Assembly (NCBI GenBank): GCA_031383405.1
Contig: JANMZO010000266.1
Coordinates: 262-64,261, forward strand
DNA length: 64,000 nt
Direction of reading: 5' to 3'
Origin: Acidimicrobiia bacterium
GTDB taxonomy: Bacteria; Actinomycetota; Acidimicrobiia; Acidimicrobiales; JANYDT01
A program made the translations under genes and the position numbers. The notes beneath the pieces were generated by a model that saw only the letters and a list, made by a program, of their open reading frames with translations, made no database searches and was not told where the DNA came from. Of the stretch, positions 7,642 through 24,689 are shown piece after piece; positions within the stretch are counted from its first letter, which is position 1; every line of letters begins with the position of its first letter.

Positions 7642-8775
7642 CTAGCCGATTTCGAGTTCGCTGATCAGAACGGCGCGTCCTTCATCGATTGAGCGGTGGG
7701 CGGCGACGCCGACCGCCACCGACCACAGCCCCTCCTCCACGGTTACGGCCGGTGCGGTGCCGTTTCGGATCGACTTGAGGAACCCGAGATGTTCGAGGTA
7801 GCTGGCCCCGTGGTGATAGCCAACGTGACCCACGCGTTCATCGGTAGAGGCGTCGAGTTCGATGATGGTCGGCTCGCCGGGCCAACCGTCGGGTCGACCG
7901 GCACCGCGCCGTCCGATGGTCACGGTACCTTCGGTGACCTTCGACTCGACCTTTCCCCGGTCGCCGACCGCGACCAACTCCTGCTCGTTTTTCGAGGCTT
8001 CGGCGAACATGCACAGATCAAGTAGTCCGCGGGCTCCGTTCGCGTAGTCGACGATGACGAACGCGTTGTCGAGAATGTCGGGGACCTCGCCGGCCGGGTT
8101 GCCCGGATAGCGCTCATCAAGGTGGTTCACGTTCTGCCCGCCGCTGGCGTAGACCCGGACGGGCCGCGACCCCACGGCCAGGTTCATCAGATCGAAGAAG
8201 TGACAGCACTTTTCGACGAGGGTGCCTCCGGTGTTCATCGAGAAGCGGTTCCAGTCCCCGACTTTGATGAGGAACGGAAACCGGTGTTCGCGGATGGAGA
8301 TCATCTTGAGGGTGCCGATGTTCTCGGTCGTGAGCTCCCGCAGAAACTGCGCAACCGGCGGCATGTAGCGGTACTCGAGCCCCATCCAGACGATGCCGCC
8401 GTGGGTTTTGGTGTGGGCGACAATCCTCATGGCGTCTTCGATCGTCGTACACAGTGGCTTTTCGACCATGACGTGGAGGCCCGGGGCCAGGGTGAAAATC
8501 GCGTCAAGAACTGCCGCGTGGGTGAAATTGGGGGTGCAGACGACCACGGCGTCGATCAGCCCCGACGCCAACATCTCCCGGTAGTCATCGAACTCGACCG
8601 GCGCGGGTCGACCCGGGAGGGCCGCCCTGGCCGCTTCGCGCGACGGACCGTGCGGATCGGCTATCGCGGTCACGGCGGTATCTGGGATGGCCGCCAGGTT
8701 CCGGATGTGCTCGCAGCCCATGAGCCCGGTCCCGATGATGCCGTAGCGGACTGCCGTTCCTTCGTTCACGGACAC
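7642..8775 (-). CDS. Gfo/Idh/MocA family oxidoreductase
   Basis: N-terminal Rossmann motif (RYGIIGTGLMGCEH) and the EKP motif (MVEKPLC). Confidence 0.85.
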   Translation of the reverse strand: MSVNEGTAVRYGIIGTGLMGCEHIRNLAAIPDTAVTAIADPHGPSREAARAALPGRPAPVEFDDYREMLASGLIDAVVVCTPNFTHAAVLDAIFTLAPGLHVMVEKPLCTTIEDAMRIVAHTKTHGGIVWMGLEYRYMPPVAQFLRELTTENIGTLKMISIREHRFPFLIKVGDWNRFSMNTGGTLVEKCCHFFDLMNLAVGSRPVRVYASGGQNVNHLDERYPGNPAGEVPDILDNAFVIVDYANGARGLLDLCMFAEASKNEQELVAVGDRGKVESKVTEGTVTIGRRGAGRPDGWPGEPTIIELDASTDERVGHVGYHHGASYLEHLGFLKSIRNGTAPAVTVEEGLWSVAVGVAAHRSIDEGRAVLISELEIG

Positions 8776-8937
8776 ACGGTAATGCGCGTAAGCGTCATCG
8801 GGCCTTCAGGGAGCTGGAAAATCGCGAGCCGACGCAAGAGTTGCGTGGAATCCCTCGCTGGGCTCGTACACGTTGGAAACACAGGATTCACAGTGACGCA
8901 AAGCTCGGGCAACAGCCGGGCCATATCGTCCACCCCG

Positions 8938-9669
8938 ATGTATACCGACTTGGATACGGTTTCTCCCGCCCTCCCCGGCGTGGAGTTCATCGCGAGCTCC
9001 GGTCGGCTCGGCGACGACGCGTATTCCCTGCTGAAGACCCGGATCCTGCGTGGGGAATTCCCGCTCAACATGCGGCTCGTGGAAACCCGCCTGGCGAAGG
9101 AACTCGGCTTGTCGCGCACTCCGGTGCGTGAGGCTCTGGCCCGACTGGCCGCGGAGTCGTTGCTTGCGCCGCATCCCGATGGAGGTTTTCAGCCGAGAAT
9201 TCCCGACACTGTCGCCATCCGGGAGCTGTATGAGGTTCGGGCCGCGCTTGAAAACCAGGCGCTCCAACGCCCCGGCCGCAACGGTGCCGTCCATGACCCG
9301 ATGATCCTTGAACCGCTCCGCGATTACTGGCTGGGGCTTCTGAACGGCACGCCCCCCGAGCCAACCCCGGAGTTCGTCCTCCTCGACGAGTCCTTCCACG
9401 TCACGCTTGCGTTGTCGGCGGGAAACCGTGCGACGGTCGAGTTGCTGACGCGGGTCAACGAGCGAATCCGGATTATCCGGATGCAGGACTTCCTCGACGA
9501 AACCCGGATCCGCCTGACCATTGAGGAGCATCTGGCCATAGTCACCGATGTTCTGGAGGGAAACATTCTTGCGGCCGAGATGGCATTTGCCGCTCATCTC
9601 GCCGAGTCGATGGCCTTCGTGGCGGAACGGGCCCAGGCGGCAATCGCCCGGATGGTGATCGGAGCATGA
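8938..9669 (+). CDS. GntR family transcriptional regulator (FadR/FCD subfamily)
   Basis: wHTH ([25 protein letters not shown]) plus a helical FCD-like C-terminus. I chose ATG 8938 (alternative GTG 8893). The rest of the 515-aa track ORF is antisense to the oxidoreductase gene. Confidence 0.82.
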
Positions 9670-11297
9670 ACATGAACGGCTCAAACGGCGAACCACTGCT
9701 CAAGGCCCGGGGGATCTGTAAATCCTTCGGCTCCGTTGTAGCCAACGCCGACGTCGACCTCACCCTGTTCCACGGCGAGGTTCACGCGGTGCTCGGAGAG
9801 AATGGAGCGGGAAAGTCGACGCTCATGAAGGTGCTCTTCGGTCTCTATCCGGCGGATGGCGGAACGATCGAGGTGCAAGGTCGGCCGGTCGCGATGGACA
9901 GCCCGGCCGTGGCCCGTGAGAACGGTATCGGCATGGTGTTCCAGGATCTCCGCCTGGTGCCGGCACTGACCGTCGTGGAGAACATCGGACTCTCGCTGAT
10001 TGACCGTGGGCTGCGATTTGATCGGAAATCACTGTCGAAGCAGATCGAGGCGGCCGCCCAGCAGTTCGGCTTGGCGGCTGATCCGGGGGCCACCGTTCGG
10101 GAGCTTTCGATCGGGGAGCGTCAGCGGATCGAGATACTGCGCGTGCTGATGACCGGCGCCAAACTCGTGATCCTCGACGAACCGACCAGCGTGCTCGCTC
10201 CCCAGGAAGTTGATCAACTGTTCGCAGGTCTCCGGTTGTTGAAAGCACAGGGGTTGGCCGTAGTTGTCATCACCCACAAACTGGCCGAGTCGCGCTCGAT
10301 CTCAGATCGCGTCACGGTACTTAGGGGCGGACGGCTGATCGTCGACGGCCAGGAGCCTTCGACGATGACCAACGACGAGCTGATCGAGGCGATGGTCGGC
10401 CGTTCCGTGCCGGGCCTTCCAGCGACCCGGGTGCCGACGCCGAAGGACCGTCCGATGGCGCTGCTGCTTGAGCATGTTTCGGTCCACGACCGCCGTCGGG
10501 GAACCCTGCTCGACGACATCACGCTCCATGTCGCAGCAGGCGAGATGGTCGGCATAGCGGGTGTCGCCGGCAACGGTCAGCTTCCGCTATACGAAGTCGC
10601 GCTCGGGCTCAGCGTCCCGTCGGAAGGTTCGCTTTCGATCGGTGGAAAGGCAATTGCCAAGCCAACGCCCCAAGCGGTTCTGGAAGCGGGGGCGGTGGGG
10701 GTTCCCGAGGATCCGATCCGCGACGCGGTGGTACCCGGACTGTCGGTCCACGAGCACGTGGCGCTCGACGCCCGTCGCTCGTTTCGCAAGGGCCTGAGCA
10801 TCGACTGGGCGAAGGTCCGGAACCACTATGCGGAAGGCAACAGCGTCAGTGAGTTGCGGGGCGCCAACGGTCACCGACTGCTTGGATCACTCTCCGGCGG
10901 CAACATTCAACGGGTCATGTTAATACGCGCGCTTAGTGCCTCCGGGGCCACCCTGGTAGTGGCGGCATATCCAAGCCGCGGTCTCGACATCGCCACAACC
11001 CGTCGTACGCAGGAGCTGCTACTGGAGAAACGGGCCGGTGGGGCGGGGGTATTGCTTATCTCCGAGGATCTCGACGAGTTGTTCGAGCTGTGCGATCGGA
11101 TTGCCGTTCTGCACGGGGGGAAACTGGTCGGTGTGGTTGACCCGAAAGTGTCCAATCGCTACGAAGTCGGCCGTCTGATGCTCGATGCCCACGGCACGGG
11201 ACACGGAGTGTCGAAAAACACGGCGGATTCGAGCGAAGCAACCGCAGGTGGCATCTCGTTGTCCGGTGCTCCCGTTTCCATCGGCGGTTCCCGGTGA
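9666..11297 (+). CDS. ABC transporter ATP-binding protein, duplicated ATPase (CUT2/BMP-type)
   Basis: Walker A (GENGAGKST), signature motifs ([16 protein letters not shown]) and two NBDs in 543 aa. The start overlaps the GntR stop (ATGA). Confidence 0.9.
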
Positions 11298-12385
11298 CAT
11301 CCGCCGATACCCAAGTCGTCATCGGGCCGGCGCTTTCGCCCGTTGACGTAGTCCGTTCGCCCCGGGCGCGTGCCATAAGGGCCGGTGCGTCTCGGTATCT
11401 TGCCGCATTCGCTGGCGCTCTGGCGTTGTTCGCGATCTTGATGCTGATCAAGGGCGTGAACCCGATCGCGGCATACAAGGACATGGTCGTTTCGACGTTC
11501 GGTGATTCTTCGCAAATCGCCGGAATACTTGTGCGGGCCACCCCGATCATCCTCGCCGGACTCGCCGTCAGCGTTCCAGCGCGCGCCGGGCTGATCAACG
11601 TCGGTGGTGAAGGGCAACTGATCATCGGCGGGGTCGCCGCCATGGGCGTGTCGCTTCTTGTAGACGGTCGTCTTTCCGGGCCCCTGTCGCTTGCGCTGAT
11701 GGGTCTGGCTGCAGCCGTGGCGGGGGGGCTCTGGTCCGGTATCGCAGCCCTGCTGCGCCTCAAGATCGGGATCGCAGAGTCGGTCACGACGCTCCTCCTG
11801 AACTACATCGCGCTGGACGTCATGTACTTCCTGATCTATGACCGGTGGAAGGACCGGGCCGGCTCGGGCCAACCGGCGACCCGCCCTGTAGCCCGTGGGG
11901 AACACTTGCCACTGTGGTCCGATACACGGGTCCATCTCGGGTTGTTGCTGGCCGTGTCTTGCGCGTTGCTCATTTTCGTCCTGTTCCGCAAGACCGGTTG
12001 GGGGTTTCAGCTCCGGGTGGTCGGAGGCAACATGGAAGCGGCCCGAAGGTCGGGTCTAAAAGTAAGTGCACTTATCGTAAGTGCAATGTTCGTAGGTGGA
12101 GCGCTGGCCGGGCTGGGTGGCTTTGCGCAGCTTGCCGGAGCCGAGTTCAAACTGCGATCGGGCTTTCTGGCCGGATACGGCTACGTAGCGTTCCTCGGGT
12201 CGTGGCTGGCCCGGCACCGCCCGATCGGGGTCACCCTTTCGTGCATCCTGCTTTCCGCCATCGCCATCACCGGCGACAGCCTCCAGCTTGACTCCAAACT
12301 CCCCGCTGCGAGCGTGAACGTTCTCATGGCGCTGGTGCTGCTCGGTGTCTTCGGATTCGGCCGGAAGCGAAAGAGCGCATCATGA
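11294..12385 (+). CDS. ABC transporter permease (BPD_transp_2 type)
   Basis: 363 aa, polytopic. Start and stop are coupled to both neighbours. Confidence 0.85.
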
Positions 12386-13299
12386 ACATGCTCACCGAAG
12401 TCATGACCGGCGGTGTCCGTGGTGGCACCTCGATCCTCTACGCCGCCCTCGGGGAGTCGGTGTCTGAGCGGTCCGGGGTCGTGTACCTCGGAACGGAAGG
12501 CTCCATCCTGATGGGAGCACTGGCCGGGTACGCGGTCGCATCGGAAACCGGTCAGGTCTGGTTCGGCGTACTGGCCGGTGCCGCTGCGGGCGGAGCCTTG
12601 GCTGCCGTGCACGCCTACCTGGTGCTGAGCCGGGGAGCCAACCAACTGGCCACCGGCCTGGTGGTGCTCTTTCTCGGCCTCGGCCTCACCTCACTCTTCG
12701 GAGCCAACTACGTACAGGCGCTGGCTCCCTCGTTCCGGCCCGTGGCCATTCCAGGGCTGTCGTCGATCCCGTTCTTCGGCACGGTTCTGTTCAAGCAGGA
12801 TCCGCTCGTGTACCTCTCGTTCGCCCTCGTGCCGGCCATGTGGTGGTTCATCAGCCGGAGCCGTTGGGGTCTTCTGCTCCGTGCCGCCGGTGAGCGCTCC
12901 GAGGTCCTGACCGCCACCGGCCACCGGGTGCTTCCAATCCAGTACGCCGCGGTCGTGGTCTGCGGCATGTTCGCGGGCATCGGTGGCGTTCACCTTTCAA
13001 CCGCCTACACCAAGTCATGGTTCGAAAACATGGCCCAGGGGCGAGGTTTCGTGGCGGTTGCGGTCGTCATGTTTGCGGCCCGGCAGCCGTTCAAGGTGGC
13101 GGCCGGTTCGTATCTCTTCGGTGCTGCGCTCGCGCTTTCACCTGCGCTTCAGGCCCGCGGATACGGCATCAACCAGTTTGCTCTCGACGCGGTCCCGTAT
13201 CTGGTGACCCTCGGGGTGCTTATCGTGCTCGGAAAGCGCCGCACCGCCGACCTTCCCGAAGGCCTGTCCAAGGTTTTCGAAGCGACACCCACCACTTGA
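12382..13299 (+). CDS. ABC transporter permease (BPD_transp_2 type)
   Basis: 305 aa, polytopic, with an ATGA overlap to the upstream permease. Confidence 0.85.
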   Translation: MNMLTEVMTGGVRGGTSILYAALGESVSERSGVVYLGTEGSILMGALAGYAVASETGQVWFGVLAGAAAGGALAAVHAYLVLSRGANQLATGLVVLFLGLGLTSLFGANYVQALAPSFRPVAIPGLSSIPFFGTVLFKQDPLVYLSFALVPAMWWFISRSRWGLLLRAAGERSEVLTATGHRVLPIQYAAVVVCGMFAGIGGVHLSTAYTKSWFENMAQGRGFVAVAVVMFAARQPFKVAAGSYLFGAALALSPALQARGYGINQFALDAVPYLVTLGVLIVLGKRRTADLPEGLSKVFEATPTT

Positions 13300-13313
13300 C
13301 CTTCACAACCAAC

Positions 13314-13365
13314 AAGCCCCACAACCAAGCCCCACAACCAAGCCCCACAACCTAGCCCCACAACG
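13314..13365. repeat. 13-bp C/A-rich tandem repeat (aagccccacaacc, 4 copies, last one degenerate)
   Basis: Read directly. Fills much of the 135-bp spacer between the last permease and the SBP gene. A fifth degenerate copy may start near 13301. Confidence 0.85.
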
Positions 13366-13434
13366 AGCAATTCCCCTACCCGCAACACCTACATCAGCAC
13401 TACCTAAACCTAGCAATCCTTCTGGAGGACAAAC

Positions 13435-14712
13435 ATGCGATCACGACTTCTCATTCCTGCGGCGATAGCCGCACTCTCACTGCTGGCCGTCGGCTGTTCC
13501 AGCGACAAGGCCGCCGACACCACGGCTGCCACCGAGACGGCCGCTGCCGAGACCGCTGCTGCCGACACGGCTGCTGCCGACACGGCTGCTGCCACCGAGA
13601 CGGCCGCTGCCTCCGAGACGGCTGCTGCGGCGGCGGAAACGACCGTCGCGGCTGCTGCGACCGGGACCGGGCCCGGTGCCGGGTCGAAGAAGGTCGGGTT
13701 CATCTTCGTAGGCCCGAAGGATGACTACGGTTACAACCAGGCGGCATTCCAGGGCAGCGAAGCGGTGAAGGCGAAGTTCCCGGACCTCGAAGTCCTCACC
13801 GCCGAGAATGTTCCGGAAGACGACAACGCGACCCGCATCATGGAAAAGATGATCTCCGATGGAGCGAAGATCATCTTCGCCACGTCCTACGGTCACCTCG
13901 ACCCGGCGATGAAGGTCGCTGCCGCTCACCCGGATGTCGCCATTGTGCAGCAGGGTAACTTCATCAAAGACGCGGTTCCGGCCAACGCTGGAACATACTT
14001 CGGCACCGTCTACGAGCCCGTGTATCTCGCTGGTATCGCGGCCGGAAAGGCCACGAAGTCCAACAAGCTGGGCTATGTGTACGCCTTTCCGATTCCCCAG
14101 ACCATCGCCAATATCAACGCATTTCAGCTCGGCGCGGCTTCGGTCAATCCGGCCATTCAGACCCTGGTTGTTAACACGTCGAACTGGTGTGATCCGGCGA
14201 AGCAGGCCGAAGCGGCCAAGAGCCTCTTCGCTCAAGGCGTCGATGTCATAACTCAGCACCAGGACTGCACGGCCACGATCACGAAGGCGGCTGAAGAGGC
14301 CGGCAAGATGGTTGTGGGCTACCACGCCGATGCATCGTCGCTCGCCCCCAAGGGCTGGGTGGCCGGTTCCGAATGGAGCTGGGGTGACCTCTACATCGAT
14401 ATTGTCAACACGGCGCTTTCGGGCAAGTTCACCGGCTCGAAGTTCAACGGCAACTACCGGGTTGGCTACAAAGACGGCGGAAACCCCTTTGTACAGTCGA
14501 AGTTCGGAACAATGATCGACGATGCGACAAAAGCGAAGATCGAAGAGGCCAAGAAGCTCATTTCGAGCCCAGAAGGTTCCCCCTTCACCGGCCCCATCAT
14601 GGCTCAGGACGGTAGCGAGATGTTCCCGGCTGGCGTACCTGATTACGCGTCGGTCGAATCGAAGAACACCGTCTTTGTCAAAGGCGTTGTCGGCGAGATC
14701 CCGAAGGGCTGA
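13435..14712 (+). CDS. BMP family (Med/PnrA-like) ABC transporter substrate-binding lipoprotein
   Basis: Lipobox (LLAVGC), a long Ala/Thr/Glu linker, then a BMP-like body (KVGFIFVGPKDDYGYNQA..). Confidence 0.88.
   Translation: MRSRLLIPAAIAALSLLAVGCSSDKAADTTAATETAAAETAAADTAAADTAAATETAAASETAAAAAETTVAAAATGTGPGAGSKKVGFIFVGPKDDYGYNQAAFQGSEAVKAKFPDLEVLTAENVPEDDNATRIMEKMISDGAKIIFATSYGHLDPAMKVAAAHPDVAIVQQGNFIKDAVPANAGTYFGTVYEPVYLAGIAAGKATKSNKLGYVYAFPIPQTIANINAFQLGAASVNPAIQTLVVNTSNWCDPAKQAEAAKSLFAQGVDVITQHQDCTATITKAAEEAGKMVVGYHADASSLAPKGWVAGSEWSWGDLYIDIVNTALSGKFTGSKFNGNYRVGYKDGGNPFVQSKFGTMIDDATKAKIEEAKKLISSPEGSPFTGPIMAQDGSEMFPAGVPDYASVESKNTVFVKGVVGEIPKG
13511..13660 (+). repeat. in-frame low-complexity tandem repeat encoding the (A-A-A-[DE]-T) linker of the lipoprotein
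   Basis: The gctgctgccgacacg-type 15-bp periodicity encodes AADTTAATETAAAETAAADTAAADTAAATETAAASETAAAAAETT. Confidence 0.8.
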
Positions 14713-14732
14713 TCCCCACCGGTGTGGTTGAT

Positions 14733-14758
14733 CGGGCGGCCGGGTCACCGGCCGCCCG
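14733..14758 (+). terminator. stem-loop after the SBP gene (cgggcggccgg gtca ccggccgcccg)
   Basis: Perfect 11-bp GC stem with a 4-nt loop. A T-run (cccattttt) follows ~10 nt downstream. Confidence 0.65.
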
Positions 14759-14945
14759 TGCAGTTCCCATTTTTAGTACCGTCCCTTTTCTGAATCGCCC
14801 TGGTAGTGCCTCTTCGCGTAGGAGACTGCGACGCCGAGCGCTACGGCAATCCGATACCCGTGGGAGATGTTGAAGAATTCGACATCACACTCTCCTGCGC
14901 TTCAGTGCACTAGTTCGTGTAAAACCTTTGATGTGAGGAGTTGGC

Positions 14946-15626
14946 GTGACCGGACCTGTTCTGGCCGAACCATACAACTGGCCCTATGACGGTGTCATCG
15001 ACCCCAACCGGACCGCGCTGGTCTGTATCGACTGGCAGACCGACTTCTGCGGCGTCGGCGGGTACGTGGATTCTATGGGTTATGACCTGTCGCTCACCCG
15101 TGCGGGTCTGGCGCCGACGGCCGTGGTTCTGGCGGCCGTGCGTGCGGCCGGTTGGAAAGTCGTGCACACGCGGGAAGGCCACCGGCCCGACCTCTCCGAC
15201 TGCCCACCCAACAAACTCTGGCGATCGAAAGGTATCGGGGCCGGTATCGGCGACGCAGGTCCGTGCGGACGCATCCTGGTCCGGGGCGAACCCGGTTGGG
15301 AGATCGTTCCCGAAGTCGCGCCTATAGCTGGAGAGTTGATCATCGACAAACCGGGTAAAGGCGCGTTCTACGCGACGGACCTCGACCTCCTCCTCCGAAC
15401 CGCCGGCATCACCCATCTGGTCTTCACCGGAATAACCACAGATGTATGTGTACATACGACTATGCGTGACGCAAACGACCGGGGCTACGAGTGCCTCCTG
15501 CTGTCGGATTGCACCGGCGCCACAGATTTCGGCAACTATGAGGCGGCCCTGAAGATGGTCACGATGCAGAATGGTGTATTCGGAGCGGTTGCACCGTCTA
15601 AGGCACTGTTGGACGTACTGGGGTGA
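14946..15626 (+). CDS. isochorismatase-like cysteine hydrolase (RutB/BiuH/TrtA-type amidohydrolase), copy 1
   Basis: Candidate D-K-C triad contexts: [30 protein letters not shown] lies 6 nt before GTG 14946. Confidence 0.85.
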   Translation: MTGPVLAEPYNWPYDGVIDPNRTALVCIDWQTDFCGVGGYVDSMGYDLSLTRAGLAPTAVVLAAVRAAGWKVVHTREGHRPDLSDCPPNKLWRSKGIGAGIGDAGPCGRILVRGEPGWEIVPEVAPIAGELIIDKPGKGAFYATDLDLLLRTAGITHLVFTGITTDVCVHTTMRDANDRGYECLLLSDCTGATDFGNYEAALKMVTMQNGVFGAVAPSKALLDVLG

Positions 15627-15630
15627 GCGC

Positions 15631-17424
15631 ATGAGGAGCGAAATGCCGGCATCGACCGCTGGATCGGATGCTCTCAACCCTGCCGGCTGGTCCGTTGCCG
15701 ATCATCTTGACGCACGTCGACGTGGGATGTCGGCGTCCGAGGTGATGGAGGTGGTCCTTCGGCAATTGGAGACGCTCGATGACCCAGCGGTGCTCATCGG
15801 CGCGCCCCTGCGTCGGTCCGCCATGGAGGCGGCTCTGGAACTGGATGGGAAGGAGCCTGCGGATTACCCGTTACACGGTGTGCCGTTTCTGGTGAAAGAC
15901 AACATTGATGTGCGGGGTATCGAGACGACGTGCGGATGCCCGTCTTTCGCGTACGTGCCTGACGTTGATTCCGAGGTGGTGGCCCGCCTGCGAGGAGCGG
16001 GGGCGATCCCGGTCGGCAAGACGAACCTCGACCAGTTCGCAACCGGCCTGGTGGGGACCCGCTCGCCGTACGGGATCCCCCGCAATCCGCTCAACGCCGA
16101 CCTGGTCCCCGGGGGATCCAGCTCGGGCTCGGCCGTGGGGGTCGCCCGCGGACTGGTGCCGTTCTCACTCGGAACCGATACCGCAGGGTCCGGGCGTGTG
16201 CCGGCTGCGATGTGTGGCATCGTCGGTCTGAAGCCAACCGTGGGGCGTTTCCCTTCGCGGGGAATCGTGCCGGCGGTGCGTCGGATCGACTGCCCGACCG
16301 TGTTTGCCAGATCGATGGCCGACGCCCGCCTCGTGGGCCGGATCATGGCCGGGTATGACCCGATTGATCCGTACTCGAAGCGACCGGTTTCGTCGAAGTC
16401 GGCGGTACGCATCTTCGGGATTCCAAAGGACCTTTCGGCACTTGCGCAGATCATGGACCCGGATGCTCTGCGCGCCTATCAAAACGTGATCGAGGGCCTT
16501 TCGAAGGTCTGGACCGTCGTCGAGATCGACCTGGCCCCGTACCTGGAGGCCGGCCGCCTCCTGTACGGTGGGCCATTCGTGGCGGAACGAACTGCTGCGG
16601 TTGGTGATTTTCTCGCAGCTGACCCGCCCGGGCTTGATCCGACCGTTGCGTCCATCATCCGGGCCGGCACGACCTACACGGCGGTGGAGGCTTATGGCAA
16701 CGAGTACCGCGTGTCGGACCTCCGGCGTCGGGTCGACGCTGACTGGTCGACGATAGACGCCATCATCCTACCCACCACGCCCGGAGTGGCGACTTTGACT
16801 GACGTTGCAGACGACCCCGTCGGGGCGAACATGCGGCTCGGGACGTTCACAACGTTCGTCAATCTGCTGGACCTGGCGGGAGTGGCAATTCCGGTTGGTA
16901 CGCGCGCTGATGGTCTCCCTTTCGGGGTGCAACTCATCGGTCCGGCCTGGACGGATGAGGCACTCGCCGACGTGGCGCAAATCCTGTTGGGCGAACCCGA
17001 GACCTTGGAGGGAGCCCGAGACGGAGAGCAGTTGATCACGGTAGTTGGTGCGCACCTTCAGGGCATGCCGCTGAACCATCAACTGACCGGCCGGGGGGCC
17101 CGCCTCGTTGCCGAAACCGAGACGGCCGGGTCATATCGGCTGTACGCGTTAGCCGGCACCGTGCCACCAAAACCCGGGCTTCTCCGGGTGGCCGAGGGTG
17201 GCCGAAGCATCCTGGTCGAAGTCTGGGCGATGTCGGTCGCCGAGTTCGGGTCCTTTACCGCCGAGATTCCCCGACCGCTGGGCATAGGGTCGGTGGAGTT
17301 GGCCGATGGAACCGTGTGCAAGGGCTTTATCTGCGAGCCGGACGGGTTCCCCGGTGGCACCGACATCTCCGAGTTCGGTGGATGGCGTGCGTATCGCGCG
17401 GCACAGGTCGGAGGTGGCGCGTGA
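15631..17424 (+). CDS. allophanate hydrolase (AtzF/amidase-signature family with allophanate hydrolase C-terminal domain)
   Basis: Amidase signature ([20 protein letters not shown]) plus a C-terminal domain ([27 protein letters not shown]). About 597 aa from ATG 15631. Confidence 0.85.
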
Positions 17425-18080
17425 ACGTCGACGCCCGCCCGTTTCCGTTCATCGCCGATGTGACAAGCACAGCGCTGCTGATCATTGACATGCAACGGGA
17501 CTTTCTCGAACCCGGTGGATTCGGGGAACTGCTCGGAAACGATGTGTCTTTGCTGCGAACGACGATCGGGCCGAACCGTCGCGTCCTCGACGCGGCTCGC
17601 GAGCTAGGGATGCTGGTCATCCACACGCGGGAGGGGCACCGACCCGACCTCACCGACTGTCCACCGGCCAAGTTGACGCGCGGAGGCACGACGTTCATCG
17701 GCACCGATGGCCCGATGGGCCGAATTCTTGTGCGCGGTGAAGCCGGTCACGAGATCATCCCGGAACTGGCACCGCAGCCCGGCGAACCGGTCATCGACAA
17801 GCCCGGCAAAGGGGCGTTCTACGCTACCGACCTAGAGTTGATTCTGCGTGAACGTCGGATCCGGTCTCTCGTCGTGTGCGGTGTGACAACGGAAGTATGT
17901 GTACATACGACCGTGCGCGAAGCGAATGATCGCGGATTCGAGTGTCTGGTTCTCGAGGATTGCGTCGGCTCATATTTTCCGGAATTTCAGCGGGTGGCCC
18001 TGGCGATGTTCGAGGCCCAGGGGGCAATTTTCGCCTGGGTTGGATCGTCCGACAGCTTCCTCGGGGCGTTGCCGGCGTGA
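17421..18080 (+). CDS. isochorismatase-like cysteine hydrolase, copy 2 (paralogue of 14946-15626)
   Basis: Shares [45 protein letters not shown] and TTEVCVHTT with copy 1 (roughly half the residues are identical by eye). GTG 17421 overlaps the upstream stop (GTGA). Confidence 0.85.
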
Positions 18081-18271
18081 TCCCGCTCATGGATCGACCG
18101 GGTGTCCAACGAATCCATGACGGCGCAACGTGCCGGGACCATCGGATTTCCAGCCGCGTACCCCCTTTCAGTCCCGTTCGCGTCGTACGGGCCCGGTCTC
18201 GTGGTTCGCTTGTCCCGGGGTCCCGAGGCGACGAAACCCGCGGCGAGATCCGCCTCATCACCTCTACCGCC

Positions 18272-19060
18272 ATGTATGCGACGACTATGGGGCGAGCAGA
18301 CCCGCAACGATGTTCTGACGTCGTGTCGCTTCACCCGGTGAGCGTCCCCCGGTCGCCGTTGTCGCTCCACGTCGAAGCGTGGGATGCCTTTGTCGACGCC
18401 GGTTTCGTCGTCGGTGACCGTGTCCTGCTTCGGGACGGTTCGCTGACGGTGTCGGGCGCATCGGGAAATGTCGTGGTGTGTGACTTCGCTGACGCGCCCG
18501 AGTGGACGGGTTCAACCGGGGCTGTTTCGATCTCCTCCCGTGCGGTCGATGACGCTCTTGGCCAACTCGAGATGCTGAATCAGCTGTCGTTGCGCGCGGC
18601 CCGGGCCCGTCTGGCGGACCGGGTCGACGCGCTGGTTGCCGCTCTCTGTGAGGGGAGCGATCCGTCGGTAAGGGCGGCGGTCCGGGGGCTTGTCGGCTTC
18701 GGGCCGGGTTTGACACCGTCCGGTGATGATGTGCTGGCGGGATGCCTTGTCGCACTGCTTCGTTGGAACGCAACGGTGTCAGTGGGCGATCGCCTCAAGC
18801 GGACGATAACGGAGCGTCTGGCGAGCCCCAACGCCACGGGCTTCGTCGGACGCCAGCTCCTCGAACTCGCCCGACTCGGGTTCACCCATGAAGCGCTCGA
18901 CGACGTTCTTCTGGCCCTGCCGCTCGCAGGATCGGCGCTCGCGTCGCCGGCGGAACGGGTCTTGTCCGTCGGAGCGACGTCCGGTGCCGATTCGTTACTG
19001 GGTGTCGAGTGTGCGTTACGGGTGTTCGTCGCTCTGACGGAACGAGACGTCCCCAAATGA
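18272..19060 (+). CDS. DUF2877 family protein (E. coli YlbF/AllH-like)
   Basis: About 262 aa from ATG 18272. The GFGPGLTPSGDDVLAGCLVAL motif and the position next to fdrA/DUF1116 genes support the call. The start is uncertain. Confidence 0.6.
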   Translation: MYATTMGRADPQRCSDVVSLHPVSVPRSPLSLHVEAWDAFVDAGFVVGDRVLLRDGSLTVSGASGNVVVCDFADAPEWTGSTGAVSISSRAVDDALGQLEMLNQLSLRAARARLADRVDALVAALCEGSDPSVRAAVRGLVGFGPGLTPSGDDVLAGCLVALLRWNATVSVGDRLKRTITERLASPNATGFVGRQLLELARLGFTHEALDDVLLALPLAGSALASPAERVLSVGATSGADSLLGVECALRVFVALTERDVPK

Positions 19061-20682
19061 CACAGTCGGCCGCCACGCAACCTGATTCTCCGGTGGACGC
19101 GACGGATGGACCGGTGGCCCGATCGACGGTGGTCACCAACCGCTACCGCGACTCCGTCGCACTGATGCGGATGGCTGCCGCGGCGGCGGAAATCGGCGGG
19201 GTACAGTCGGTCGCCGTCGTAATGGCGACGGAGGCCAACCTGCTCGACGCGGCGACGAAGGGTTTCGCCGTCGACTCCGACTCGTTAGGTGTCACCCCAA
19301 CGGCCAACGACGTGTTCATCGGCGTCATTGGCGAGGACCGTGCTTGCGCACTGGCCCTTGCGGTCGTCAGCGAGGACCTGGCCGGCAGCCGGGCATCGAC
19401 ACCGGCGGCGGGAACCTCCGGCGGTTCGCAAACAGAGGCCGCCGCGTCCATCTCTTCGGCATTTCAGCGGGCCGGAGGTTCAGCTGAAGCTCACTCGTCG
19501 CTCGACGGGGGGCTGGTCTCGGTTGCGGTGATCTCGGTGCCGGCGGCCTTTGCGGCGTCCGAGGCGCGTAAGGCGTTGGCTCTCGGTATGCACGTGATGC
19601 TGTTCAGCGACAACGTCGGCCTCGACGATGAGTGCGACCTGAAGCAACTGGCCGCGCAGCGGGGCCTGCTGCTCATGGGCCCCGACTGCGGCACAGCAAT
19701 GATCAACGGTGTGCCTCTCGGCTTTGCGAATGTGGTGCGGCGAGGGTCGGTAACGGTAATCGGCGCGTCTGGTACAGGCATGCAGGAGGTCATGGCCCAC
19801 CTCCATCGCCTGGGGTCAGGTGTCCGGCAGGCGATCGGTTGCGGCGGCCGGGACCTTCATCTGCGGGTTGGCGGTTCCACGATGATTCAGGCACTGCGTC
19901 TTGCTCAGGCTGACGGGGACGTCGAGGCGGTGGTTCTTGTTTCCAAGCCACCCGATCCTGCGGTCCTGAGGGCCGTAGCGGAAGCCGCCCGGCCCCTGAT
20001 CGCACGCGGCGTACCGGTTATCCTGTCGGCGACGGGTCTGCATAGCGGTGATCTGGCCGAAACCGGCCTCCACGTGGCTGACAGCCTTGACGACGCGGCC
20101 CGGATAGCGTCTCGCCTGGCATCTGCGGCTCCGGGTGGTTCGCTCGCAACGACGACCACGAGCGTGCCGCTCACGACCGCAGGTGCTCCGTTCGTGCTAC
20201 CCGGACGGGGTGAGACCAGTGTCGTGGGTGCGTTTTCGGGAGGAACCCTCAAGACCGAGTTCACCCACCTTCTTCGCGACCTTCCCGCGAACGTAAGCGT
20301 GCATGCGGTCGACTTCGGCGACGACGAATACACGAAGGGCCGACCCCATCCAATGATCGACCCGGGCGTTCGGGACCGTGAGGTCATCCGGGCAATGAGT
20401 GATCCGGCGGTGGCCGTGGTCCACTTCGATGTGGTCCTCGGCTTTGGCGCGGCATCTGATCCGATCGGTGGACTTCTCTCTCAGCTGGCCGTGATGCCTG
20501 CGAGCCGGTCGACGCTGCTATGCGCGCATGTTTTGGGAACGGAGTTGGATCCCCAGGGCCGTGACGGGATTGTCCGCCGCCTGACCGACGCAGGGGTGAA
20601 CGTCTTCGACACGAACGCGCAGGCTGCGAACTTCATCCGGTCGGCCGTCACGGGTCCCGAACGGGAAGGGCATGGGTCATGA
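19057..20682 (+). CDS. fdrA: FdrA family protein (succinyl-CoA synthetase alpha-like; E. coli FdrA/AllF-like)
   Basis: RDSVALMR, MLFSDNV, LLLMGPDCGTAMINGVPLGFANV, VIGASGTGMQE, GRPHPMIDP and VLGFGAASDP blocks match E. coli FdrA as I recall it. ATGA overlap with the upstream gene. Confidence 0.85.
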   Translation: MTQSAATQPDSPVDATDGPVARSTVVTNRYRDSVALMRMAAAAAEIGGVQSVAVVMATEANLLDAATKGFAVDSDSLGVTPTANDVFIGVIGEDRACALALAVVSEDLAGSRASTPAAGTSGGSQTEAAASISSAFQRAGGSAEAHSSLDGGLVSVAVISVPAAFAASEARKALALGMHVMLFSDNVGLDDECDLKQLAAQRGLLLMGPDCGTAMINGVPLGFANVVRRGSVTVIGASGTGMQEVMAHLHRLGSGVRQAIGCGGRDLHLRVGGSTMIQALRLAQADGDVEAVVLVSKPPDPAVLRAVAEAARPLIARGVPVILSATGLHSGDLAETGLHVADSLDDAARIASRLASAAPGGSLATTTTSVPLTTAGAPFVLPGRGETSVVGAFSGGTLKTEFTHLLRDLPANVSVHAVDFGDDEYTKGRPHPMIDPGVRDREVIRAMSDPAVAVVHFDVVLGFGAASDPIGGLLSQLAVMPASRSTLLCAHVLGTELDPQGRDGIVRRLTDAGVNVFDTNAQAANFIRSAVTGPEREGHGS

Positions 20683-22103
20683 TGGCCCCGGACGTACCTG
20701 TCGTGCGCGTGTTCAACGTCGGCGTCGAGGAGTTCTGTCGGGGCCCGGAGTCGGTGGGCGCCGAGGTTCATCAGATCGACTGGCGTCCCCCGGTCGATGG
20801 CGACCCGGAGACATCGGAAGTGTGCTCGCATCTACTGGCCGATCCACGGGTCGATGAAGCCAACCGCGAGGCGACTTCCCGATTCCTGGCCGTCGATCCG
20901 GTGGCGATCGATGTACAGAAGGCAGCTCAAGCGATCGCCGGCCTGGGCACCGGGCGGCCCACTCTGTTGCACGCGGGTCCGCCGATCGTGTGGGAGTCCA
21001 TGTGCGGACCGATGAGGGGTGCGCTCATAGGTGCGGTCCTGTTCGAGGGATGGGCATCCTCGGTCGACTCGGCTGTCGAGCTTCTCGGGAACGGTGGAGT
21101 CGTCCTCGAACCGTGCCATCATCACGGCGCGGTCGGCCCGATGTCGGGTGTGATCAGTCCTTCGATGCCGGTGTGGGTAATCGAGGATCCCGCCTCGGGT
21201 CGTCGGTCGTTCAGCAATCTCAACGAGGGCCTGGGCAAGGTGCTGCGATTCGGAGCGTTCGAACCGGCGGTGCTCGAACGGTTGCGGTGGATGGGCTCGG
21301 AACTGGCGTCGGTCCTCAGCGCCGCGATCCGTTCTCTCGGAGGCATCGCGCTTCGACCCGTGATGGCCCAGGCTCTCCACATGGGTGACGAGGTCCACAA
21401 CCGCAACTCGGCCGCAACCGGGCAATTCCTCAAACGCCTGGCCGCTCCGATCGCGCAGACCGACTTCCCAGGCGAAGCGATTGCCCGGGTGCTCCAATTC
21501 ATCGGGGGTAACGACCACTTCTTCCTCAACCTCTCGATGGCGGTCTGCAAGCTGCAACTCGATGCCGCCTCGGGCGTGGCGCACTCGACGATCGTCACGG
21601 CTATGGCCCGCAACGGCGTGAACTTCGGCATCCGGGTGAGCGGGACGGGCGACACCTGGTTCGAGGCGCCAGCGTCGATGATCAACGGTCTGTACTTCGC
21701 CGGCTTCGGACCCGACGACGCGAATCCCGACCTTGGTGACAGCGCGATCACCGAGACGGCGGGGCTCGGAGGGTTCGCGATGGCGGCCGCGCCGGCGATT
21801 GTCGGGTTCGTAGGCGGCACCGCGGCCGACGCGTTGGCCTACACGGTCCGCATGCGCGAGATCTGCGTGGCGGAAAACCCGGTTTTCACGATCCCGTCGC
21901 TCGGCTTCCGAAACACCGGTCTTGGAATCGACGTACGGCTTGTCATCGACACGGCGATCCTCCCGGTGATCAACACCGGCATCGCCCACCGCGAGGCCGG
22001 AATCGGTCAGATCGGCGCGGGCATCACGACCGCTCCCTTCGCCTGCTTTGCCGGAGCAGCGAAAGCGCTGGCCCGGGTGTCTCAGCCCGCTCCGGTTACT
22101 TAG
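20679..22103 (+). CDS. DUF1116 family protein (E. coli YlbE/AllG-like)
   Basis: LLHAGPP..W..MCGPMRGA..GA.LFEGWA, NLNEGLGKVLRFGA, GDSAITET.GLGGFAMAAAP and INTGIAHREAGIGQIGAG blocks match YlbE as I recall it. ATGA overlap with fdrA. Confidence 0.85.
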   Translation: MMAPDVPVVRVFNVGVEEFCRGPESVGAEVHQIDWRPPVDGDPETSEVCSHLLADPRVDEANREATSRFLAVDPVAIDVQKAAQAIAGLGTGRPTLLHAGPPIVWESMCGPMRGALIGAVLFEGWASSVDSAVELLGNGGVVLEPCHHHGAVGPMSGVISPSMPVWVIEDPASGRRSFSNLNEGLGKVLRFGAFEPAVLERLRWMGSELASVLSAAIRSLGGIALRPVMAQALHMGDEVHNRNSAATGQFLKRLAAPIAQTDFPGEAIARVLQFIGGNDHFFLNLSMAVCKLQLDAASGVAHSTIVTAMARNGVNFGIRVSGTGDTWFEAPASMINGLYFAGFGPDDANPDLGDSAITETAGLGGFAMAAAPAIVGFVGGTAADALAYTVRMREICVAENPVFTIPSLGFRNTGLGIDVRLVIDTAILPVINTGIAHREAGIGQIGAGITTAPFACFAGAAKALARVSQPAPVT

Positions 22104-22174
22104 CCCGATCTGCGTGCCCGTTCGAGAAACGACGACGTAAACGGGCGAGGGGGCTGCGAGGTACCCTGACGTTC

Positions 22175-23077
22175 ATGCAGAAACGTGCCTTGGGGAAAAC
22201 CGGGATCGACGTCGGCGAGATCGCCTTCGGATGTTGGCGTTTTGGTGGTGTCGATGTCGCCACCGCGCAGGAGCGGATCGAAACGGCTCTCGAAACTGGA
22301 ATGACGCTGGTCGACACAGCCGATGTCTACGGCCTCGACAACAACTGCCCCTGGGGCGGGGCCGAAGCGCTGCTGGGCGACGTGTTTGCTGCTGCACCGG
22401 CGTTGCGGGATCAGATCGTGTTGGCCACGAAAGGCGGCATCCACCTCGGTCCGGACCACCAGGGCCGCGAAGGTCTCGGGGTGCCCTACGAGACTTCGCC
22501 CGACTGGATCACCCACGCTTGCGAGGAGTCGCTGCGTCGTCTGAAGGTGGATGTGATCGATCTTTACCAGATCCACCGGCCCGACTTCCTCGAGCATCCG
22601 GCGTCGACTGCGAGAGCGTTGAGCGGCCTCGTCGCTTCCGGAAAGGTGAAGCACGTCGGGGTGAGCAATTACACGGCGTCGCAGGTGTCGGCGTTGCGGG
22701 CCCATCTCGATGTGCCGCTCCAGACGGTCCAGCCTGAGTTTTCCGTGAGCCGACTCGACTCGATTGACGATGGTGTGCTCGACCAGGCCATGGAACTGGG
22801 CCTCACGCCGCTTGCCTGGAGCCCGCTCGGTGGCGGCAGTGTCTTGTCGGCGGCCGGCGCGCTCGGGGCGCAACTGGATTTGTTGGCAAGCGCGCATAGC
22901 ACATCCCGAACCGGCGTTGCGTTGGCGTTCGTGCTCGCCCACCCGGCCCGAATCATCCCGATCATCGGAACGGGCAGACCCGACCGCATCCGGGAAGCGG
23001 CCGAAGCGGCCGACATCACGCTCACGAAGGCAGAGTGCTATTCGCTCATCGCCGCATCTGGAAGGAAGCTCCCCTGA
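22175..23077 (+). CDS. aldo/keto reductase
   Basis: LGKTGIDVGEIAFGCWRFG, DTADVYG, LYQIHRPD and VGVSNY motifs. Confidence 0.85.
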   Translation: MQKRALGKTGIDVGEIAFGCWRFGGVDVATAQERIETALETGMTLVDTADVYGLDNNCPWGGAEALLGDVFAAAPALRDQIVLATKGGIHLGPDHQGREGLGVPYETSPDWITHACEESLRRLKVDVIDLYQIHRPDFLEHPASTARALSGLVASGKVKHVGVSNYTASQVSALRAHLDVPLQTVQPEFSVSRLDSIDDGVLDQAMELGLTPLAWSPLGGGSVLSAAGALGAQLDLLASAHSTSRTGVALAFVLAHPARIIPIIGTGRPDRIREAAEAADITLTKAECYSLIAASGRKLP

Positions 23078-24141
23078 TGGAAATCGCCTGGTTCTCCGCG
23101 CTTTGTGACGACGACTACGAGTTCCTAGGTGTCCCCGACGCGTCGTTGCGTAGTTCGTGGGAGCACTGCTCCGACATTGTGAAACGGGCCGAAGCGAACG
23201 GCTTCGACAACGTTCTGCTCCCTTCAGGTTACGAGCTCGGCATTGACTCCACGGCGTTTGCGGCCGGTATTGCGACGCAGACATCTCGTATCAATCTTCT
23301 TCTCGCCGTCCGATGTGCCGAGATGTGGCCGCCACAGTTGGCGCGTCAGATCGGTTCGATCGACCGCATGGCGAAAGGTCGCCTGCTCGTCAACATCATC
23401 TCAAGTGATCTTCCCGGCTCGGTTGTCGCAAGTGGCCCCCGATATCGCCGCAGCACCGAGGTCATGCAGATCGTACGCTCGTTGCTGAACGGCGAAGCGG
23501 TCGACTTCGAGGGTGAGTTCTATCAGCTCAAGGTGTCAGTACCAAGCGCGCATACGGTTTCTGGAACATGTCCGCCGTTCTACTTCGGGGGTCTGTCCGA
23601 CGATGCTCGTGAGTGCGCAGCGGCCGCGGCCGACGTGTACCTCATGTGGCCCGACACGATTTCCGCCGTCACATCGATCATGGATGACATGAAGGGGCGG
23701 GCCGCGGAAAAGAACCGCACCCTGCGCTTCGGTTACCGGGTGCACGTGATCGTGCGGGAGACCGAGTCAAAGGCGCGCGACGCGGCCGACCGTCTGCTGT
23801 CCAAGCTCGATGCCCAGGTGGGCGACGCAATCCGGGCCAAGTCGCTCGACTCCCAGTCGGCTGGCGTCCGGCGCCAGGCCGAGCTGCGGGAGTCGGCCGC
23901 CGCAGGTGACGGCTACGTGGAAGAGAACCTCTGGACCGGCATCGGCCGGGCCAGGTCGGGTTGCGGCGCGGCGATCGTGGGCGACCCCGACCAGGTTCTG
24001 GCTAAGCTCAGGATGTACGAATCCCTGGGCATCGAAGCGGTCATCCTGAGCGGCTACCCGCACGCCGACGAGTGCGACCTTTTCGCCCGATACGTGCTTC
24101 CGCGTCTCGATCACGCTCCGATCCATCTTGCTGCCGGGTGA
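23077..24141 (+). CDS. LLM-class FMNH2-dependent monooxygenase, SsuD (alkanesulfonate monooxygenase)-like
   Basis: Blocks parallel to E. coli SsuD: FYFGGLSDDA, FGYRVHVIVRETESKA, NLWTGIGRARSGCGAAIVGD, VILSGYPH. ATG 23077 overlaps the AKR stop (TGATG). Confidence 0.82.
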   Translation: MEIAWFSALCDDDYEFLGVPDASLRSSWEHCSDIVKRAEANGFDNVLLPSGYELGIDSTAFAAGIATQTSRINLLLAVRCAEMWPPQLARQIGSIDRMAKGRLLVNIISSDLPGSVVASGPRYRRSTEVMQIVRSLLNGEAVDFEGEFYQLKVSVPSAHTVSGTCPPFYFGGLSDDARECAAAAADVYLMWPDTISAVTSIMDDMKGRAAEKNRTLRFGYRVHVIVRETESKARDAADRLLSKLDAQVGDAIRAKSLDSQSAGVRRQAELRESAAAGDGYVEENLWTGIGRARSGCGAAIVGDPDQVLAKLRMYESLGIEAVILSGYPHADECDLFARYVLPRLDHAPIHLAAG

Positions 24142-24158: not shown

Positions 24159-24689
24159 CTATATCGCCGCGAAGGCGTCGGTGACCCACTTCCAGTGCAT
24201 ACGGCCGTGGCCGGCATTGGCCGCAAGCACGCCACCTACGGTGCCATCGGCCCACGGCGCGCCCGGAAGCGTCTCGTTGAGTTGTGCCTCCGTCAGCTCG
24301 GAAAGAAGAGTCAGCGTCACCGCCCGCGACGCCTGACCGAGGGCGACAACATCGTCAAACGACTTTCCCATGTGCTTGTGCTGCCATTCGTCGGTCATGG
24401 CGTGCACTGAGGCCATTATTTCGGGCATCGTGCGTGGGTTGCCCGCATCGTCGTTACGCAGCCCAACCGGGTTGGCGTGACCGGCGACATGGCGTCGGAC
24501 CATCGCCGCGAAGTTGTGCTCGATCAACGACAGGTGGGCCAGATGGTCGAGTGCCGTCCACATGTTCGACGGATCGTGTTCGCTCGGTGTCAGCCCGGTT
24601 TGCAGCTGTTCCTCGGTCAGCCCCCGGTACTCGTTGAGCAACCAGACCCGGCCCTCATGAAGTTCAATCTCAATGTCAGTTCGTCGCAT
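24159..24689 (-). CDS. DinB family (DinB_2-like) protein
   Basis: 176 aa helical bundle with His-rich motifs (LDHLAHLSLIEHNF, AGHGRMHW). Confidence 0.65.
   Translation of the reverse strand: MRRTDIEIELHEGRVWLLNEYRGLTEEQLQTGLTPSEHDPSNMWTALDHLAHLSLIEHNFAAMVRRHVAGHANPVGLRNDDAGNPRTMPEIMASVHAMTDEWQHKHMGKSFDDVVALGQASRAVTLTLLSELTEAQLNETLPGAPWADGTVGGVLAANAGHGRMHWKWVTDAFAAI

Follow-up and report, generated by a model that had tools for sequence, protein, structure and literature searches.

Triuret and biuret occur as impurities in fertilisers, and the oxidation of urate gives rise to triuret as well. Microbial recovery of the nitrogen in these compounds bears on nitrogen cycling in soil. One closely similar system already described is the triuret pathway TrtA-(TrtB)-BiuH-AtzF of Herbaspirillum sp. 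BH-1 and Rhizobium leguminosarum (Tassoulas, Elias and Wackett, J Biol Chem 2021; PMC7948467), and trtA-biuH-atzF operons support growth on triuret (PMC7948467). Here we analyse a 64-kb stretch of contig JANMZO010000266.1 (hereafter the window), from an Acidimicrobiales-like actinobacterium, in which genes of this pathway stand beside a set of allFGH-like genes. We consider it very probable that positions 8938-22103, from a GntR-family regulator gene to the allG-like gene, form a chromosomal cassette for the use of triuret and biuret as nitrogen source.

Gene clusters of similar content have been described in silico. Metagenome-assembled genomes (MAGs) of comammox Nitrospira_D / Palsa-1315 carry atzF, biuH, a putative trtA and bmpA-nupABC beside allFGH and allK (mSystems 2025; PMC12625717); gntR appears in the synteny figure of that study, and trtB is absent. 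MAGs of ammonia-oxidizing archaea often have biuH beside allFGHK (PMC12625717). The clusters were read there as two collocated pathways, one for triuret and biuret and one for oxalurate, and not as coupled. The AllFGH proteins themselves are known from Escherichia coli, where oxamic transcarbamylase (OXTCase) acts with the catabolic carbamate kinase AllK (Kim and Kim, AEM 2024; PMC11326118).

The locus is another instance, in an Acidimicrobiales-like organism, of this cluster type, and its core pathway is experimentally known. A preliminary description of the same DNA, which treated 8938-24141 as one unit, knew of no described pathway with this gene set; that statement no longer holds, since TrtA-BiuH-AtzF is published (PMC7948467) and the wider set with allFGH is reported from comammox MAGs (PMC12625717). 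As an explanation of the whole, we think it probable that the locus is a triuret and biuret cassette in which an AllHFG complex is coupled to TrtA.

Predicted hydrolytic enzymes for triuret and biuret

Genes were called from a six-frame listing of open reading frames (ORFs) together with Pfam and NCBIfam profiles, and starts were refined from the sequence and from close relatives. The closest relatives are an ENA metagenome contig (L017; AllG 92% identical) and an Acidimicrobiales MAG (L001; AllG 80% identical); an exact-sequence look-up of the window AllG gave no record. All of the genes named in the preliminary description were recovered at the positions given for them. The cassette measures about 13.4 kb, and its genes are closely packed on one strand, the plus strand, to which all coordinates refer unless stated otherwise. 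As had been reported, the junctions from 14946 to 24141 are overlaps or short gaps.

The first catalytic gene (14946-15626) encodes BiuH, biuret amidohydrolase. Its product passes the NCBIfam equivalog NF050097 (412.3 bits against a cut-off of 370) and carries the BiuH consensus residues Y35, Y41, D160, T187 and V205 together with the catalytic triad. The best match in the PDB is RhdBiuH of Rhodococcus sp. Mel (6xjm, 387 bits), a generalist with measurable activity on both biuret and triuret. After a gap of 4 nt, the ATG at 15631 opens the gene for AtzF, allophanate hydrolase (15631-17424), which passes two equivalogs (TIGR02713, 690.7 bits against 511; NF006043, 731.6 bits against 487) and joins an N-terminal amidase domain (Pfam Amidase, 309.5 bits) to a C-terminal AH_C domain (169.3 bits). 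In allophanate hydrolase the N and C domains catalyse sequential reactions, AH_C being the second catalytic domain (PMC5770610).

The next gene (17421-18080) overlaps atzF by GTGA and starts with the GTG at 17421, which has GGAGG 7 nt upstream. It encodes an isochorismatase-like cysteine hydrolase whose best PDB match is Herbaspirillum TrtA (6xix, 273 bits), by a narrow margin over RhdBiuH (6xjm, 252 bits). The protein falls under the BiuH equivalog cut-off (277 bits against 370), and in a neighbour-joining tree it clusters with TrtA, away from BiuH. Mutagenesis of TrtA had identified D24/K129/C162 as the triad, E72/K132/Q202 as binding residues and F35, N41, A134, E160, Y187 and I205 as six positions that set TrtA against BiuH (PMC7948467). 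At these twelve positions and at F29, V157 and T158, the window protein matches TrtA throughout (15/15 positions checked); its residue string, DFFNEKKAVTECYQI, is the same as that of 6xix, and the SYFPEF motif is present. Judged by these residues, the second hydrolase of the cassette is TrtA-type. The preliminary description had called the two hydrolases RutB/BiuH-like. They are BiuH and a TrtA-type enzyme, and a RutB identity was rejected for either (114.6 and 113.2 bits against 378).

Together these enzymes would form a complete hydrolytic route, the steps of which rest on family membership and on the published biochemistry of homologues. TrtA would convert triuret to carboxybiuret and NH3. 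Carboxybiuret, which has a half-life of about 20 min and on which two kinds of enzyme are known to act, a decarboxylase and a deaminase, would decarboxylate spontaneously to biuret, no trtB gene being present here. BiuH would then convert biuret to allophanate and NH3, and AtzF would release 2 NH3 and 2 CO2 from allophanate.

The AllHFG genes and their association with TrtA

The remaining catalytic genes of the cassette are AllFGH-like and run in the order H-F-G. The preliminary description had predicted an AllFGH-like complex; its three subunits are indeed found by Pfam, in an order other than F-G-H. The AllH-like (DUF2877) subunit (18272-19060; Pfam AllH PF11392, 63.5 bits against 25) has an uncertain start, the ATG at 18272 being TTG in L017 and L001, and the gap that follows trtA is 191 nt, or 8 nt if the alternative ATG at 18089 is used. 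This protein is 41% identical to an AllH of Burkholderiaceae and 34% identical to E. coli YlbF, in both cases in the C-terminal half. The AllF/FdrA-like subunit, which is succinyl-CoA-synthetase-alpha-like (19057-20682, ATG at 19057; Pfam CoA_binding and Ligase_CoA), is 36% identical to E. coli FdrA and lies below the cut-off of the NCBIfam FdrA model NF004760 (356 bits against 433); its orthologues carry HMA_AllF_N. The AllG (DUF1116) subunit (20679-22103, ATG at 20679; Pfam AllG, 312 bits) is encoded by the final cassette gene and shares 51% identity with E. coli YlbE across 411 residues. The AllH-AllF and AllF-AllG junctions are ATGA overlaps.

A tblastn probe of the whole 64-kb window detected no carbamate kinase. 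The window was likewise searched for a urea transporter and for an AH_C domain standing free, and the sole match was the AH_C inside AtzF. Families of allantoinase, allantoate amidohydrolase, AllD-type ureidoglycolate dehydrogenase and urease are absent from the 34 window ORFs scanned with Pfam, a set that does not extend to some of the short ORFs or to several of those at 53-64 kb.

Lineages with an AllG at least 56% identical to that of the window were collected by a genome scan, a protein search and neighbourhood look-ups. There are 11 (Acidimicrobiales L001/L017, L101, L102, L103, L107, L108, Nonomuraea L104, Mycolicibacterium L018, a Burkholderiaceae MAG L019, and Avibacterium L002-4), and an isochorismatase-family gene lies in the AllG cluster in 11/11. 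It is TrtA-type wherever it was typed, the hydrolases of L107 and L108 being assigned by Pfam family only, and the typed TrtA-type hydrolases stand immediately upstream of AllH/AllF. The usual operon reads TrtA-AllH-AllF-AllG-carbamate kinase-AH_C, plus a permease, and the kinase of the module is a genuine carbamate kinase. In Mycolicibacterium sp. Dal123E01 (L018:11410-12774) it is fused to AH_C and follows AllG directly, and L102 shows the arrangement of the window with a carbamate kinase added. No oxalurate-forming or allantoin-pathway genes were found in the annotated neighbourhoods of members of the AllG clade. In neighbour-joining with 200 bootstraps, the clade linked to TrtA appears as an exact split in 81.5% of replicates and stands apart from the clade of E. 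coli and Sutterella in 200/200.

Approached from the other side, a metagenome scan gave the 80 loci most similar to the window TrtA, and those with 6 kb or more of flank, 37 in all, were counted. AllF/G/H or carbamate kinase lies within 6 kb of TrtA in 15 of these and BiuH/AtzF in 13; both occur in only 2 and neither in 11. The AllHFG module and BiuH/AtzF thus mostly replace each other, as expected of alternative downstream routes. The active-site residues of TrtA do not differ between the two contexts, and in a neighbour-joining tree the proteins of both are interleaved.

The distribution of AH_C follows a related pattern. A free or kinase-fused AH_C occurs in most AtzF-less modules, namely those of L018, L019, L103, L104, Avibacterium, L035, L045, L056, L067, L073 and L100, and none is seen in the AtzF-less modules of L107, L108, L060 and L099. 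In the window and in L001, L017, L101 and L102, where AtzF supplies an AH_C, no free copy was seen; L025, L083 and L103 hold both a free AH_C and AtzF.

Some loci depart from the usual operon. In the bird pathogen Avibacterium paragallinarum NCTC11296 (L003:496-14755), two AllF-AllG pairs belong to different AllG clades and are accompanied by one AllH, one carbamate kinase, a TrtA-type hydrolase, a free AH_C, an NCS1 permease, a multi-span membrane protein (described below), two LysR genes and an ankyrin-repeat protein, with no BiuH and no amidase. Two AllG paralogues surround TrtA in L051 and L077, and one AllHFG module adjoins a gene of the urea-transporter family.

A putative phosphorolytic route and its alternatives

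Looking across these loci, we see an even chance that AllHFG is a TrtA-linked carbamoyltransferase that phosphorolyses an acyl-urea made downstream of TrtA, a role suggested by sequence families and gene neighbourhoods. The reaction that we favour is that of carboxybiuret with phosphate to give carbamoyl phosphate and allophanate. It would give every enzyme of a hybrid locus a distinct job, with allophanate feeding AtzF, and would explain the absence of trtB both here and in comammox bacteria; moreover, carboxybiuret is, like oxalurate, a carboxylate-terminated N-carbamoyl compound. Allophanate is of this class too, the likeness to oxalurate being a chemical analogy. In a possible second round allophanate and phosphate would yield carbamoyl phosphate and carbamate. 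Such a round would make the operons that hold only the module self-sufficient, with all four nitrogens released and two ATP gained via carbamate kinase. Alternatively, AllHFG may convert biuret and phosphate to carbamoyl phosphate and urea. In most relatives carbamate kinase would then make ATP from carbamoyl phosphate; in the window, which has no carbamate kinase, carbamoyl phosphate may enter the synthesis of arginine or of pyrimidines, or may serve an unlinked kinase. To our knowledge, carbamoyl transfer to phosphate is undescribed as a fate of carboxybiuret. Literature searches for any proposal that triuret or biuret is cleaved by phosphorolysis led to nothing beyond the 2025 paper on collocation (PMC12625717).

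More generally, and somewhat more tentatively, we propose that AllHFG represents a new specificity, that of a carboxybiuret/allophanate (or biuret):phosphate carbamoyltransferase, and that with carbamate kinase and free AH_C it makes up a widespread, ATP-yielding, phosphorolytic triuret pathway. If so, triuret would in principle yield 2 ATP per molecule, and all four of its nitrogens would be freed without urease or amidase. Carboxybiuret would have a third enzymatic fate, an alternative to BiuH/AtzF, and the window would be a hybrid that keeps both routes. The combination of a hydrolytic and a phosphorolytic branch, already put forward in the preliminary description, fits this comparative evidence.

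Several points weigh against the coupling of AllHFG to TrtA. The free AH_C that occurs without an amidase domain counts against the scheme, which leaves it unexplained; the AH_C reaction is reported to be the decarboxylation of N-carboxycarbamate (Fan et al. 2013). The trees are neighbour-joining only, and in the TrtA tree the characterised enzyme of Herbaspirillum branches as the outgroup of the TrtA-like sequences sampled, without exception. The TrtA-first sample is skewed towards the loci nearest the window TrtA, many of them on short contigs, and as loci and not whole genomes were compared, unlinked BiuH, AtzF or urease fall outside the comparison. The window holds a complete hydrolytic route and no carbamate kinase, so that a phosphorolytic branch is unneeded here. 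Given its 51% identity to E. coli AllG, the window protein may have kept an unchanged specificity, and the sole characterised AllFGH, that of E. coli, uses oxalurate and oxamate (PMC11326118).

The complete hydrolytic route and the 51% identity of AllG would suit a different explanation, the main rival, which we regard as unlikely but deserving of weight, namely that two independent pathways are collocated. TrtA-BiuH-AtzF would serve triuret and biuret, requiring nothing of AllHFG, and AllHFG would be a genuine oxamate transcarbamoylase acting on imported oxalurate, which it would turn with phosphate into oxamate and carbamoyl phosphate; both substrates being urate oxidation products, one locus would gather enzymes for related scavenged compounds. 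The AllG, AllH and AllF-like domains match families defined on the E. coli enzyme, and oxalurate degradation is the published reading of the same synteny (PMC12625717). Counter to this, the clade is in an operon with TrtA in all 11 lineages, often as a minimal TrtA-AllHFG-carbamate kinase-AH_C operon with one regulator and one transporter, and no gene for forming oxalurate (AllD) or handling oxamate is nearby. The largely mutual exclusion of the module and BiuH/AtzF beside TrtA, and the separation of this AllG clade from that of E. coli and Sutterella, also argue for coupling, and the accompanying AH_C domain points to allophanate-type chemistry. The preliminary description had listed several H2N-CO-NH-CO-X compounds as substrates. 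That type of compound stands, with triuret and biuret the best supported; nothing in the locus or in the window, of which 34 ORFs were scanned with Pfam, points to allantoin, parabanate or oxalurate.

It is improbable, in our view, that AllHFG is anabolic or detoxifying or acts on an unrelated substrate, whether as an FdrA-type acyl-CoA-synthetase-like enzyme or by condensing carbamoyl phosphate with an amide, its linkage to TrtA then reflecting shared regulation and not consecutive steps. NCBIfam does label the FdrA model acyl-CoA synthetase, the window AllF is under its cut-off, and the E. coli OXTCase was assayed in the synthetic direction, with a very high Km for oxamate (36.9 mM). However, a catabolic carbamate kinase is the standard next gene of the module, which argues for the production of carbamoyl phosphate, and the module alternates with the catabolic BiuH/AtzF pair.

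An older unit split by the cassette

Downstream of allG, after a 71-nt spacer without significant structure (z = +0.7), lie genes for an aldo/keto reductase (AKR; 22175-23077; Pfam Aldo_ket_red, 176.7 bits) and an SsuD-like, LLM-class flavin monooxygenase (23077-24141; Pfam Bac_luciferase, 158 bits), which overlap by TGATG. A convergent DinB_2 gene follows (24159-24689, minus strand). Upstream of the cassette is a MocA-type oxidoreductase gene (7642-8775, minus strand), divergent from the GntR gene. The preliminary description had extended the unit to 24141 and thus counted the AKR and LLM genes in it.

In other genomes these genes form a unit of their own. On a 2.2-Mb contig (L106), orthologues of the window genes for a sugar-type ABC permease (64% identical), a substrate-binding protein (78%), MocA (58%), AKR (65%) and LLM (77%) are contiguous, and MocA and AKR are divergent immediate neighbours. 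MocA | AKR-LLM is contiguous also in Polymorphobacter (L105), and ureide genes are absent near the trio in both contexts examined. In the window, the genes from GntR to AllG, and nothing else, lie between MocA and AKR (22175); given their contiguity elsewhere, we infer that the cassette was inserted into the MocA/AKR intergenic region. Comparison of 8740-8960 with 22080-22200 revealed no shared word of 8 or more bases on either strand, and the insertion therefore bears no mobile-element signature.

The closest relative, L017, shows the same arrangement as the window, AKR-LLM included. In L001, the nearest relative at species level, AKR-LLM lies 8.8 kb downstream of AllG, and the interval (L001:11431-20216) holds a DUF222 gene, a GNAT gene, an extracytoplasmic function (ECF) sigma factor with DUF6596, an MFS transporter and several family-less ORFs; this part of the chromosome seems prone to insertions. 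AKR-LLM is absent from every other AllG or TrtA locus examined. AKR and LLM belong to the MocA unit and lie outside the ureide pathway: co-conservation, the property by which the preliminary description proposed to judge its unit, fails for these two genes. The reading of 8938-24141 as one pathway, in which an oxidised purine fragment would be hydrolysed and phosphorolysed and also oxygenated or reduced, on the model of RutA/RutB, is very improbable and largely refuted by this synteny, even though the single strand, the unstructured AllG-AKR spacer and the AKR-LLM overlap make read-through transcription plausible and L017 shares the arrangement.

Two more specific identities considered for LLM were also rejected. 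An SsuD identity falls under the equivalog cut-off (TIGR03565, 255.4 bits against 518.2) and a RutA-like reading falls further below its own (44.9 bits against 498); synteny with AKR and MocA speaks against each. No ssuE or ssuABC was identified beside LLM, the neighbours of which are AKR and the convergent DinB_2 gene. Homologues are widespread, the 120 best listed being 70-99% identical and the named ones including two genera of Alphaproteobacteria, Polymorphobacter and Sphingomonas, and sources label the protein "alkanesulfonate monooxygenase" in spite of its score against the SsuD cut-off.

The MocA | AKR-LLM trio itself (L106:3832-7062; L105:3981-7053; LLM 72-77% identical) ranges from an actinobacterial-type contig to Polymorphobacter (Alphaproteobacteria), and in the window as in L106 a sugar-type ABC transporter stands next to it. 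At a larger scale the window is core chromosome, with nrnA and truB, then rpsO, pnp, dapB, dapA, RNase J and FtsK. Between truB (1419-2540) and rpsO-pnp (pnp, 26671-29394), the stretch 2540-26400 looks like accessory DNA, made up of the sugar ABC system, MocA, the ureide cassette, AKR-LLM, DinB_2 and a beta-lactamase-family gene.

Transport, regulation and intergenic features

The cassette opens with the gene for a GntR-family regulator with an FCD ligand-binding domain (8938-9669, ATG at 8938; Pfam GntR, 49.6 bits; FCD, 51.7 bits), which may control the locus. Of the 37 metagenome loci counted above, 13 have a GntR homologue no more than 6 kb from TrtA. An ABC importer follows. The start of its NupA-like ATPase gene (9666-11297; Pfam ABC_tran, 154 bits, with two ABC domains in two stretches) overlaps the GntR stop, and the protein is 88-93% identical in L001 and L017. 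Two BPD_transp_2 permeases (11294-12385 and 12382-13299; Pfam PF02653, 93.8 and 98.3 bits) come next, again at overlapping junctions, and then a BMP/PnrA-type substrate-binding lipoprotein (13435-14712; Pfam Bmp, 137.6 bits). This system would import the substrate, the lipoprotein being presumed to be the component that binds triuret or biuret. BMP-type transporters also adjoin TrtA in L009, L040, L051, L077, L086, L092, L101 and L102.

The protein most often encoded beside TrtA has about 500-560 amino acids, 10-13 predicted membrane spans and the N-terminal motif GDWNAFFG..TN.LVN, for which there is no Pfam or NCBIfam match. It adjoins TrtA in 27/37 metagenome loci, in AllHFG and BiuH/AtzF contexts alike; examples are L079:967-2565, L003:5037-6518 and L103:13566-15248, with about 50 other loci. 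We regard it as a candidate triuret/biuret permease. It is absent from the window, which has the BMP-type ABC system instead.

A G+C-rich hairpin with an 11-bp G+C stem lies at 14733-14758 on the plus strand, 21 nt past the BMP stop and so between the transporter and catabolic genes. The preliminary description had taken it for a terminator-like boundary. The structure is real, a 78-nt stretch folding at -37.4 kcal/mol (z = -4.9, with 0/200 shuffles as stable), and the stem is retained with differing bases in L017 and L001 (by an alignment read by eye, pairs uncounted); the hairpin has no U-tract, for which reason a consensus terminator scan did not flag it. It is possibly a terminator, an attenuator or an mRNA-stabilising element. 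An Rfam gathering scan of the whole window gave no RNA family, and an E-value scan of 13250-15000 gave only chance miRNA and sRNA matches over the repeat-rich lipoprotein linker; thus no known riboswitch lies upstream of biuH. The consensus promoter and terminator scan was uninformative, with fewer sites than in shuffled sequence.

Repeats and spacer differences mark this part of the cassette. The lipoprotein has an Ala/Thr/Glu-rich repeat linker after the lipobox (13509-13628; 15-nt period, 6.7 copies), and in the spacer between permease 2 and the BMP gene a 13-nt unit, CAAGCCCCACAAC, stands four times in tandem at 13313-13364, the copies being perfect or near-perfect (Tandem Repeats Finder score 97). 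The BMP-biuH spacer is about 100 nt longer in the window (about 14812-14912) than in L017 and L001; the hairpin, GTGCAGTTC after it and the ribosome-binding region are common to all three.

Implications

The comparative pattern is more useful than the locus itself, because it turns the collocation of two pathways into a specific, testable hypothesis. If the hypothesis is true, there is a second and widespread specificity in the recently discovered AllFGH transcarbamoylase family, and energy could be conserved in the catabolism of triuret via carbamoyl phosphate. For annotation, allFGH beside trtA should not automatically be read as oxalurate degradation, and the AKR and LLM genes downstream are not to be counted in the pathway.

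Comparison with known systems

The likeness to the Rut pathway is superficial, in that an LLM monooxygenase and isochorismatase-like hydrolases share one region; the scores are far under the RutA and RutB cut-offs, and the LLM gene belongs to the MocA | AKR-LLM unit. With the cyanuric acid pathways (AtzEG/AtzH of Pseudomonas sp. ADP, or TrtB), the proposed route would share the carboxybiuret intermediate and the convergence on allophanate and AtzF, but the locus has no homologue of AtzD, AtzE/G or AtzH/TrtB.

In the triuret pathway (PMC7948467) as in the window, TrtA, BiuH and AtzF are clustered, and the window TrtA has all of the catalytic and specificity residues of the crystallised enzyme. 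The window differs in lacking trtB, the AtzH-like carboxybiuret decarboxylase; in the presence of AllH-AllF-AllG right after trtA; in the order biuH-atzF-trtA; and in its Acidimicrobiales-like actinobacterial host.

In gene content, which was compared in place of sequences, the comammox cluster is alike in gntR, bmpA-nupABC, biuH, atzF, a putative trtA and allFGH and in the absence of trtB; the window has no allK, the carbamate kinase gene, and comes from another phylum. With the AllFGH of E. coli, the window shares three subunits of DUF1116, DUF2877 and FdrA-like type. The order is H-F-G in the window and not F-G-H-K, and allK, allECD and other allantoin genes are missing nearby. Its AllG further differs from that of E. 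coli in an N-terminal extension of about 55 residues and in its place within a separate clade (200/200 bootstraps) that is always linked to TrtA.

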